Positions 62,365 through 63,571 of a stretch of DNA of 64,000 bases are shown one piece after another. Both the position numbers and the translations under genes were made by a program. The notes below the pieces were generated by a model. That model saw nothing but the letters and a program-made list of their open reading frames with translations, did not search any database and had not been told where the DNA came from. The stretch lies in the IMG/VR virus record IMGVR_UViG_3300020048_000080; one strand, given 5' to 3'. Each line of letters opens with the position of its first letter. Within the stretch, counting starts at the first letter, position 1. This DNA is from a virus (lineage: Duplodnaviria; Heunggongvirae; Uroviricota; Caudoviricetes).

Positions 62365-62450
62365 TGCAGATGTGGCGGAACTGGTAGACGCGGCAGACTT
62401 AAAATCTGTTGTCCCGTAGGGGACGTGTGGGTTCGACTCCCATCTTCTGT
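62365..62450 (+). tRNA. type-II tRNA, anticodon UAA (Leu)
   Basis: Acceptor gcagatg/cttctgt; D-stem gcg/cgc with a GG loop; anticodon stem gcaga/tctgt with loop cttaaaa; long variable hairpin gtccc-gtag-gggac; T-arm gtggg-ttcgact-cccat; 3' tail a-caa. Confidence 0.7.
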
Positions 62451-62460
62451 ACAAATTAAT

Positions 62461-62544
62461 GGTTGAGTGGTGAAATTGGTAAACACAGCAGGCTAAGAAC
62501 CTGCCGATATAAAAATCTTAAGGGTTCGAGTCCCTTCTTGACTA
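62461..62544 (+). tRNA. type-II tRNA, anticodon loop ctaagaa (anticodon AAG as read; Leu-type)
   Basis: Acceptor ggttgag/cttgact with G-U pairs; D gtg/cac; anticodon stem gcagg/cctgc; long variable arm; T-arm aaggg-ttcgagt-ccctt. A at position 34 is unusual. Confidence 0.5.
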
Positions 62545-62590
62545 CAAAAAAAAGTTCATCTTTTTTATTTTATATATACAAATAAAAAAG

Positions 62591-63304
62591 ATGAACTTTA
62601 TGAGAAATAATTATTCAATTGATATACTTAGGTATGCAAAAAAATACAAAGCAGTACAACTATTAGGTGGTAAATGTGAAAAATGTGGTGAAGATAGATT
62701 TTTTAGATTATCATTTCATCATACATCAGATGATAAAGAATATAATATAAATGAATTAAAAGGTTATAGATGGGAAATAATTGAAAAAGAAATTAAAAAA
62801 TGTAATTTATTGTGTAGAAATTGTCACTCAGAATTACATCATTTAAATACTGATGATACTGATTATAAAAAGAATAAAAAATTATATCTAAAATATAAAA
62901 ATATGGATAGTTGTGAGGAATGTGGATATAATAAATGTAATGAAAGTTTAACATTTCATCATAGAGATGATAAGAAAATCAAAATGTCAAAATGTAGAAA
63001 TGGTAAATTAAATAGAATTAAAGAAAGTATAATAGAAGAATTAAATAAATGTAAAATTCTTTGTCAAAATTGTCATATGGAAAAACATTCAAATTTAGAT
63101 TTTTTTAATGAAAATATAGATTCTATAATTGAAAAATCAAAAAATTTGAAAATTATATCTGGTAAAATTGATAGGGAAATAGTAAAAAAAATGTATTTTG
63201 AAAAAGGAATGAAACAAATAGAAATAATGAAATATTTTAATTGTGCAAAAGGAACAATATCAAGTATAATTAAAGAATTAAAAAATGAAAAAATAAAAGA
63301 CTAA
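62591..63304 (+). CDS. HNH homing-type endonuclease (two HNH-like Cys/His modules) located between tRNA genes
   Basis: 'CEKCGEDRFFRLSFHHTSD...LCRNCHSELHH' and a second 'CEECGYNKCNESLTFHHRDD...LCQNCHMEKH' module. The gene starts 46 nt after one tRNA and ends 2 nt before the next. Confidence 0.6.
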   Translation: MNFMRNNYSIDILRYAKKYKAVQLLGGKCEKCGEDRFFRLSFHHTSDDKEYNINELKGYRWEIIEKEIKKCNLLCRNCHSELHHLNTDDTDYKKNKKLYLKYKNMDSCEECGYNKCNESLTFHHRDDKKIKMSKCRNGKLNRIKESIIEELNKCKILCQNCHMEKHSNLDFFNENIDSIIEKSKNLKIISGKIDREIVKKMYFEKGMKQIEIMKYFNCAKGTISSIIKELKNEKIKD

Positions 63305-63306
63305 AT

Positions 63307-63390
63307 GGTCCGTTGGTGCAACTGGAGTGAGACACAATTGCCTTAGAAGCAATCCCTTAACTGGTGTGGGTTCGAGTCCCACACGGACTA
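63307..63390 (+). tRNA. type-II tRNA, anticodon UAG (Leu)
   Basis: Acceptor ggtccgt/acggact; anticodon stem attgc/gcaat with loop cttagaa; T-arm gtggg-ttcgagt-cccac. Confidence 0.65.
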
Positions 63391-63395
63391 CATAT

Positions 63396-63479
63396 GATCC
63401 TGTGATGCAACTGGAGTGAGACATGACACGCTTAAACCGTGTTCCTTAAATGGTGTGGGTTCGAGTCCCATCAGGATTA
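63396..63479 (+). tRNA. type-II tRNA, anticodon UAA (Leu)
   Basis: Acceptor gatcctg/caggatt; anticodon stem acacg/cgtgt with loop cttaaac; T-arm gtggg-ttcgagt-cccat. The D-loop is almost identical to that of the previous tRNA. Confidence 0.6.
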
Positions 63480-63487
63480 CAAAAAAT

Positions 63488-63571
63488 GGCTAAGTGGCGA
63501 AACTGGTAGACGCGCTGGTCTCAAAAACCAGTATCAGCAATGGTGTGTGGGTTCGACTCCCATCTTGGCTA
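63488..63571 (+). tRNA. type-II tRNA, anticodon CAA (Leu)
   Basis: Acceptor ggctaag/cttggct; D gcg/cgc; anticodon stem ctggt/accag with loop ctcaaaa; T-arm gtggg-ttcgact-cccat. Confidence 0.7.

Follow-up and report, generated by a model that had tools for sequence, protein, structure and literature searches.

In the attenuators of amino-acid operons and of pheST (leu, trp, his, pheL/pheM; PMC1183508, PMC3082878), a short open reading frame (ORF) with regulatory codons is followed by an intrinsic terminator, and the transcript forms mutually exclusive helices between regions 1 and 2, 2 and 3, or 3 and 4, the regulatory codons lying in region 1. Among the other described systems closest to the locus studied here are the tRNA arrays of huge phages (Al-Shayeb et al., 2020; PMC7162821). 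The purpose of phage tRNAs has long been debated, codon compensation and escape from tRNA-targeting defences being the two proposals (PMC10264068). The present work deals with a stretch of 64,000 nucleotides (nt) from a virus of the Caudoviricetes (IMG/VR record IMGVR_UViG_3300020048_000080), referred to below as the window, in which a leucine-rich leader ORF and a terminator precede a cluster of five tRNA-Leu genes. This leader has in common with the known attenuators the short ORF with regulatory codons, the intrinsic terminator and, by prediction, the three exclusive helices with the regulatory codons in region 1. According to our best explanation, which we hold to be probable, the leader is an attenuator sensitive to leucine decoding by which the phage tRNA-Leu operon would regulate itself. 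An earlier note on this DNA, made from the letters alone, had described the tRNA cluster and missed the leader ORF and its proposed attenuator, as well as a tRNA-like element and a small-RNA-like unit around the cluster.

Leader ORF and terminator upstream of the tRNA-Leu genes

The elements of the leader are the following, with positions given as those of the window.

61802 to 61809, plus strand: −7 box TATCTTTG, matching TAnnTTTG, the only such plus-strand motif 5' of the cluster
62057 to 62137, plus strand: leader ORF of 26 codons and a stop codon, MKTYNNINLRLNLLLQNERTETIMLL, with 20 distinct homologous ORFs
62087 to 62101, plus strand: region 1, the regulatory Leu codons (CTC aac CTA TTG TTA), paired with region 2 in the closed form
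62113 to 62119, plus strand: region 2, GACTGAG, a copy of the terminator 3' arm
62162 to 62199, plus strand: intrinsic terminator (regions 3 and 4) identified by a terminator scan, a 13-bp stem AAAAAACCTCAGT/ACTGAGGTTTTTT and then a T tract

The leader ORF contains seven Leu codons (TTA, CTC, CTA, TTG, TTA, CTA and TTG), and its core CTC-aac-CTA-TTG-TTA, together with the upstream TTA, offers at least one codon to each of the four anticodon species of the cluster. Its homologues have 26–34 codons and the consensus MKNYNNIMNLLHLLNLLLQNKRTERIMLL. Leu codons account for 169 of the 574 codons of the leader ORFs (29.4%, versus 8.2% in the 72 ORFs of the window) and are distributed as TTA 59, CTA 40, TTG 35, CTC 21, CTG 8 and CTT 6, so that the rarer codons are over-represented. 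From one leader to another, the Leu positions swap between synonymous codons.

Four related loci, in contigs of huge phages, were found without using the leader as query. L005 (our label, as for the loci named below), a 501-kb contig, was found by a tRNA D-loop pattern, L011 by its neighbouring SPFH protein (83% identical), and L015 and L019 by the small-RNA motif located 3' of the cluster. All four have clusters of Leu-anticodon tRNAs only, with a homologue of the leader ORF and a terminator just 5' of them, and the leader is present in 4/4 lineages found independently of it (the window, L005, L011 and L015). A metagenome scan with a pattern derived from the leader added 21 loci, giving 26 loci with 20 distinct ORFs. 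In every locus with enough 3' DNA, the tRNAs lying 3' of the leader and on its strand numbered three to seven, all of them with Leu anticodons. A first search with an exact 18-mer had matched, besides L005, four unrelated contigs by chance. The leader pattern gave 0 matches in 185,579 bacterial species genomes and, hence, neither a host copy nor a host identification. Leaders for other amino acids were found neither 5' of the Gln tRNAs in L040 nor at the arrays in L001, L004 and L043–L049.

One shared closed architecture is folded by all of the 19 complete leader sequences. Its RNAalifold consensus comprises the helix CTCTTA:TGAGAG, between regions 1 and 2, and a hairpin, P1, with 91% of cells paired over the 19 sequences. 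An outer helix, with 89% of its cells paired and with changes on both sides at three pairs, joins the start of the ORF to its end, and the terminator shows two compensatory pairs across the relatives. Region 2 can pair either with region 1 or, over 7–8 bp, with the terminator 5' arm CTCAGTC (62169–62175). When the Leu codons were masked as occupied by a ribosome, the 2:3 helix was the minimum-energy fold in 19/19 sequences. Conservation extends to the ORF and the helices but not to the spacer that separates the stop codon from the terminator. In L005, L037 and L039 the ORF is frame-shifted after LLLQN; it nevertheless stays open, and the nucleotides GGACTG(A/G)G are retained.

In the clade of LR756501 there is a second type of leader (type B, the one of the window and its relatives being type A), which was found at two loci.

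L006 (LR756501), 3384 to 3530: type B Leu leader
L050, 445 to 585: type B Leu leader

The type B ORFs have 22 codons (MNNILHINLLNSLCLLGIKLIG and MNNILHTNLLNLLDLLGYNWIG), contain all six Leu codons and are followed by a terminator. Region 2, GATTGGGT, overlaps the stop codon; ACCCAATC forms region 3, and GATTGGGT recurs as region 4. Region 2 is therefore once more a copy of the terminator 3' arm, with helix sequences unrelated to those of the window. In the folding test, masking of the Leu codons led to the 2:3 helix and a ribosome on the stop codon led to the 3:4 helix. Thermodynamic prediction gives the exclusive helices 1:2, 2:3 and 3:4 in the 19 type A sequences and in both type B sequences. 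As modelled, type B lends independent support to the attenuator: between the two types, it is the architecture as a whole that covaries.

The mechanism we propose would work as follows. Transcription would enter the operon through the leader, and the 26-codon Leu-rich ORF would be translated while the RNA polymerase transcribes the terminator. Whenever Leu-tRNA for any of the leader codons was scarce, the ribosome would stall on region 1; region 2 would then pair with the terminator 5' arm, the terminator would be blocked and the polymerase would read into the tRNAs. With fast decoding, regions 1 and 2 would re-pair, the terminator would form and tRNA synthesis would be throttled; in the second clade, the terminating ribosome would cover region 2 instead. 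The operon would in this way sense decoding capacity and thereby regulate its own product. To the full claim, namely a tRNA operon regulated by its own leader-peptide attenuator and switched on only when Leu decoding is limiting, codon family by codon family, we give slightly more than even credence.

A plus-strand motif scan of 61600–63990 gave sites at 61802 and 63664, plus one at 63986 inside the last ORF, and no host-type promoter motif was found in it between the terminator and the tRNAs. The box at 61802 presumably acts as the promoter, as judged from its motif. A 62-aa ORF (61833–62021, plus strand) is inserted between this box and the leader; L011 is contiguous there.

Between the terminator and the first tRNA, most loci have a 76-aa ORF, the window has the tRNA-like element and L015 has nothing. 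The 76-aa protein (MKVIDVVRNDNMAKFSHYCGGNLYYTV...) that most relatives encode between leader and Leu tRNAs is without a Pfam match. Its ORF is located at 1381–1614 (minus strand) in L005, at 17078–17308 in L011 and in many metagenome loci, and the window has none. Distant homologues lie inside other huge-phage tRNA arrays (L043–L049). With the family as query in a wider sampling, only distant phages were recovered, with arrays lacking Leu leaders.

These data also bear on another explanation, according to which the tRNAs would be constitutive and the small ORF with its terminator would be an independent gene travelling along with them, either for a Leu-rich micropeptide or for a structured small RNA. 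The peptide is mostly well conserved, with a C-terminal TERIMLL in most versions, the leader RNA has a conserved closed fold and its own terminator, and a separate ORF divides the leader from the tRNAs in many relatives. However, the three frame-shifted versions alter the C-terminal peptide and keep the nucleotides, and two clades whose sequences are unrelated both have the copy of the terminator 3' arm within the ORF or at its end. In addition, the leader is linked strictly to Leu tRNAs and to no other tRNAs, and no promoter motif follows the terminator. We consider an independent gene unlikely.

It was also contemplated that the leader could sense uncharged tRNA-Leu directly, like a T-box and without translation, since it is structured, would involve a choice between terminator and antiterminator and has a conserved CUC codon. 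Nevertheless, Rfam gave no T-box match even at E ≤ 10, the conserved CUC sits in a helix and not in a specifier loop, the sequence has no UGGN bulge for the tRNA 3' end and the leader ORF is kept open despite indels, which leaves direct sensing of tRNA hardly credible. Regarding the Rfam leader families (Leu_leader and relatives), no match reached its gathering score, and at E ≤ 10 there was a single match, to Phe_leader, with 22.9 bits (cut-off 55) and over the terminator. We conclude that the leader would work like the Rfam amino-acid leaders but is not a member of them.

Several points weigh against an attenuator. In the first type, regions 2 and 3 were fixed by the search pattern and, as a consequence, no covariation is visible there, while covariation in the rest of the leader is modest. 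The 2:3 helix is short, 7–8 bp over a spacer of 40–50 nt. In 9 of the 19 sequences the truncated transcript has it as its minimum-energy fold even without a ribosome, so that the switch would depend on folding kinetics. The stop codon of the window type lies 15 nt beyond region 2, and a terminating ribosome would consequently leave region 2 uncovered. The richness in Leu (and Asn) could be partly a by-product of a pyrimidine-rich helix strand, and the 76-aa ORF found between the terminator and the tRNAs in most relatives could be the regulated gene. Finally, phage-specific promoters are possible 3' of the terminator, and the other tRNA arrays that were examined are without a comparable leader.

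The five tRNA-Leu genes and the supply of leucine codons

The genes that would be under the control of this leader are as follows.

62366 to 62452, plus strand: tRNA 1, Leu(UAA), type II, with G1·U72 and A73, then CAA (ARAGORN, Rfam)
62461 to 62545, plus strand: tRNA 2, Leu(AAG), type II, anticodon loop CUAAGAA, with G1·U72 and A73, then CAA
63307 to 63391, plus strand: tRNA 3, Leu(UAG), type II, second scaffold with a larger D loop and a 13-nt variable arm
63396 to 63480, plus strand: tRNA 4, Leu(UAA), type II, second scaffold as in tRNA 3
63488 to 63572, plus strand: tRNA 5, Leu(CAA), type II, scaffold of tRNA 1

ARAGORN called exactly five tRNAs in the whole window, on the plus strand only (62366–63572), and drew a complete cloverleaf for each. 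Their anticodons (UAA, AAG, UAG, UAA and CAA) are those that the earlier note had read by eye, in the same order. The five genes also match the Rfam tRNA model RF00005 with 41.3–54.2 bits (gathering score of 29; E from 2e-5 to 7e-9). The long variable arms of type II tRNAs, also described there, were recovered in 5/5 genes: these are 85–87 nt long and their variable arm, from the anticodon stem to the T stem, is of 13–16 nt, the criterion used being more than 10 nt. It had likewise been correctly seen that CCA is not encoded (0/5 genes), either CAA or CAT being found at the 3' end of each gene.

Concerning their identity, the five tRNAs of the window have both G1·U72 and A73, and among 60 distinct tRNAs of the related clusters A73 is present in 59 and G1·U72 in 44. 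Other type-II acceptors are marked by G73 (Ser) or by a GUA anticodon (Tyr), and neither is present in the five window tRNAs. The idea that G1·U72 is an oddity was rejected, as E. coli has tRNA-Leu isoacceptors with this pair naturally (PMC3203616); rather than being an anomaly, it thus speaks for Leu identity. Short tRNAs (74–77 nt, without the long variable arm) make up 22 of the 60 distinct Leu-anticodon tRNAs of the related clusters. They keep G1·U72 and A73 and were found in L015, L021, L023, L035, L037, L039 and others. Class-I-like tRNA-Leu is rare in bacteria, with an example in Streptomyces (PMC6614811). In L021 and L036 one gene was called with a two-base anticodon.

The five genes are built on two scaffolds. 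On the one hand, tRNAs 1, 2 and 5 have the classical Leu D arm and are similar to annotated tRNA-Leu genes of many phages, tRNA 5 sharing 85% identity with a tRNA of phage LR756501 (735 kb). On the other hand, the scaffold of tRNAs 3 and 4 had no match among GenBank phages; it does occur in phage tRNA arrays of IMG/VR, where its anticodons are Leu ones too. Some of the genes, especially these two (63307–63480), might be pseudogenes or accept another amino acid in place of leucine. Besides being unmatched among GenBank phages, tRNAs 3 and 4 have the lowest Rfam scores (47 and 41 bits), a D-stem mismatch, a larger D loop and a weak variable stem of 2–3 bp, and the isotype name given by ARAGORN is taken from the anticodon alone. 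However, both exceed the Rfam threshold, their A73, G1·U72 and T arms are intact, the Ser and Tyr marks are missing from them, and their scaffold is kept in other phage arrays, there too with Leu anticodons. We regard such defects or mischarging as very improbable. The explanation that we favour as a whole, and judge to be the probable one, takes the five genes as functional leucine isoacceptor tRNAs of a huge phage which would jointly read the six Leu codons.

The tRNA genes would be made as one transcript, with the presumably mobile HNH endonuclease gene included. RNase P and 3'-end nucleases would cut this transcript, and the tRNAs would then need CCA addition, for which one gene of the window is relevant.

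23448 to 24638, plus strand: class II nucleotidyltransferase of the CCA-adding enzyme/PcnB family (Pfam, NCBIfam)

That the phage encodes a CCA-enzyme had been assumed in the earlier note. The membership of the family is supported by the Pfam PolyA_pol head domain (E = 9e-31) and by the NCBIfam models for CCA transferase (E = 4e-45) and PcnB (E = 1e-43), both under cut-off, the ORF lying below every curated cut-off. Its product is a candidate supplier of CCA for the tRNAs, as far as its sequence indicates.

In the 72 ORFs of the window, the Leu codons are shared out as TTA 57%, CTT 20%, TTG 11%, CTA 8%, CTC 3% and CTG 1%. The tRNA set, with two UAA genes and one each of AAG, CAA and UAG, parallels these shares, and the proposal that such a set suits an AT-rich codon use holds within the phage, TTA being read by the two UAA genes. 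An alternative genetic code was rejected; under code 11, ORFs fill the window.

The AAG gene is the Watson-Crick reader of the abundant CTT codon. Its A34 had raised the suspicion of a mis-parsed tRNA, which we discard because related phages keep Leu(AAG), with 11 distinct genes in the related clusters. The anticodon loop CUAAGAA differs only at position 35 from CUACGAA, the loop of E. coli tRNA-Arg(ACG), the substrate of TadA. A motif search of the window found no TadA-like deaminase. Unmodified A34 pairs best with U, so that CTT is still readable (PMC11066159). In Lactobacillales and other bacteria tRNA-Leu(AAG) is read as IAG (PMC13249217, PMC8266599); these tRNAs share with the window gene the A34 in a Leu tRNA and differ from it in that the latter is phage-encoded.

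Instead of compensating for codon usage, the extra Leu tRNAs could mainly serve counter-defence, by replacing host tRNA-Leu that has been cut by tRNA-targeting nucleases or lost at host shutdown. Such a role would not conflict with the attenuator, by which the attack would then be sensed. There are reports of phage tRNAs escaping anticodon nucleases and further tRNA-targeting defences (PMC10264068, PMC11555353), and in this clade the Leu tRNAs are multiplied on several scaffolds without relation to each other, some of them short and class-I-like. Nevertheless, the window gives no pointer to a Leu-specific nuclease, and the gene set closely follows the codon use of the phage, codon supply alone being enough to explain it. 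Counter-defence as the main role is, in our opinion, possible although not probable. Codon supply, with a tRNA set that would cover the six Leu codons, each according to its use by the phage itself, belongs to the overall explanation that we consider probable.

Other elements and putative mobile nucleases of the cluster

The remaining features around the tRNA genes are listed here.

62222 to 62359, plus strand: tRNA-like element of about 137 nt, read from the sequence and folded, between the terminator and tRNA 1
62548 to 62600, plus strand: AT-rich hairpin of 19 bp, read from the sequence, with a self-complementary BLAST match at 62551–62599
62591 to 63304, plus strand: putative HNH endonuclease gene (237 aa) by PHROGs; the HNH motif occurs twice in tandem, and the C-terminal tail is helix-turn-helix-like
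63664 to 63729, plus strand: small-RNA-like unit, with the −7 box TATCTTTG, the invariant 17-nt GATTGGTGGTCAGCCCC and a terminator hairpin
63763 to 64000, running off the window end, plus strand: ORF with a T5orf172/MUG113 domain (GIY-YIG-related; Pfam E = 8e-15)

The tRNA-like element has a perfect acceptor stem of 7–8 bp, a canonical T arm (ACCAG TTCGATT CTGGT) and a trailing CAA, and its middle part is non-canonical, with a 6-bp hairpin and a long branched arm. It was not called by ARAGORN with default settings, it gave no Rfam match to tRNA, tRNA-Sec or tmRNA, and only at the 80% threshold did ARAGORN call it, with a non-canonical 'intron' of 58 nt. Searches of IMG/VR with its T arm and acceptor stem found nothing, BLAST against all the related loci that were fetched gave self matches only, and its fold is no better than that of shuffled sequences (z = −1.5). 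In L011 (16955–17062), L006 (about 3551–3694) and L050 (about 608–732), other tRNA-like or pseudo-tRNA elements are found at this position, those of L006 and L050 being conserved with each other.

The small-RNA-like unit contains the only terminator 3' of the tRNA operon. Eight distinct copies of it lie beside Leu clusters, in either orientation and with hairpins that vary compensatorily; besides the window, it was found in L011, L014, L015, L036, L037, L039 and L040. No complementary target of its motif was found in the window. Matches to the 17-nt motif in more than 120 genomes were dismissed as chance, since they have unrelated flanks and lie in GC-rich DNA.

As had been read from the letters, an HNH gene lies between tRNA 2 and tRNA 3, its stop codon being 2 nt ahead of the latter. 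This ORF matches four 'HNH endonuclease' families of PHROG (E from 6e-33 to 3e-5) in two tandem stretches, and its translation shows the motifs CxxC...HH...N...CxxCH; Pfam (HNH, PF01844) and NCBIfam gave no match to it. The clusters of the relatives contain HNH genes of different families at different positions, to which the one of the window is similar at motif level only, and these varied genes and positions suggest repeated invasion. The 19-bp hairpin is directly 3' of tRNA 2 and encloses the first ATG of the HNH ORF (62591), and may limit HNH translation or mark an insertion boundary. A second in-frame ATG is located at 62600. Just 3' of the cluster, the ORF with the T5orf172/MUG113 domain is a putative second mobile nuclease beside the tRNAs.

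The phage and its locus compared with known systems

The phage is a huge one of 25% GC, the GC content along the window being 22–36%. Apart from the nucleotidyltransferase, the window encodes a ClpB-like ATPase, ClpP, a NAD-dependent ligase, NAPRTase and adenylosuccinate synthetase, together with the following proteins.

14285 to 15451, plus strand: protein with three S1 RNA-binding domains
18826 to 20316, plus strand: hybrid sensor histidine kinase (PAS, HisKA, HATPase and receiver domains)

Motifs of the form TATCTTTG recur 5' of transcription units and fit TAnnTTTG, the −7 promoter consensus of Bacteroidota; these promoter motifs suggest a host of that phylum. The gene repertoire of the window is typical for huge phages (PMC7162821).

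Taken alone, a tRNA cluster with an HNH gene and without encoded CCA is ordinary for large phages, and it is the conserved Leu-codon leader with its terminator that raises the interest of the locus. In the literature searched, whose coverage is incomplete, we came across no tRNA genes controlled by a leader peptide, which is weak evidence of novelty, and no description of a module formed by leader, terminator, Leu tRNAs and small-RNA-like unit. If the attenuator is real, it would be the first case of ribosome-mediated attenuation controlling tRNA genes, and the tRNA supply of at least some phages would be a regulated quantity, tuned to demand. Leader-peptide attenuation would then extend from genes for amino-acid biosynthesis and synthetases to tRNA genes and to huge phages, and the compact element of about 140 nt could be used in reporters.

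The free-standing homing endonucleases of the T4 SegB type (PMC2330249, PMC13096335) resemble the case of the window in that a nuclease gene lies among tRNA genes. SegB is a GIY-YIG enzyme, whereas the putative enzyme of the window belongs by its PHROG matches to the HNH family and has a tandem double motif; that it would cut specific sites and home has indirect support in the unrelated HNH genes found elsewhere in the clusters of the relatives. With the huge phages that carry tRNA arrays (Al-Shayeb et al., 2020; PMC7162821), the window shares its richness in AT, genes of the CCA-transferase family, with S1 domains, for ClpB/ClpP and for nucleotide metabolism, and tRNAs distinct from common ones; LR756501 also carries a five-gene Leu cluster. 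The window differs from those arrays in being a single-isotype operon kept as a module of leader, terminator, Leu tRNAs and small-RNA-like unit. Finally, in comparison with the attenuators of amino-acid operons and of pheST, what would be regulated here is not biosynthetic enzymes or a synthetase but the very tRNAs by which the regulatory codons are read. Moreover, in place of one repeated codon there is a mixture of four to six different Leu codons, the leader is phage-encoded and an extra outer helix pairs the start of the ORF with its end.

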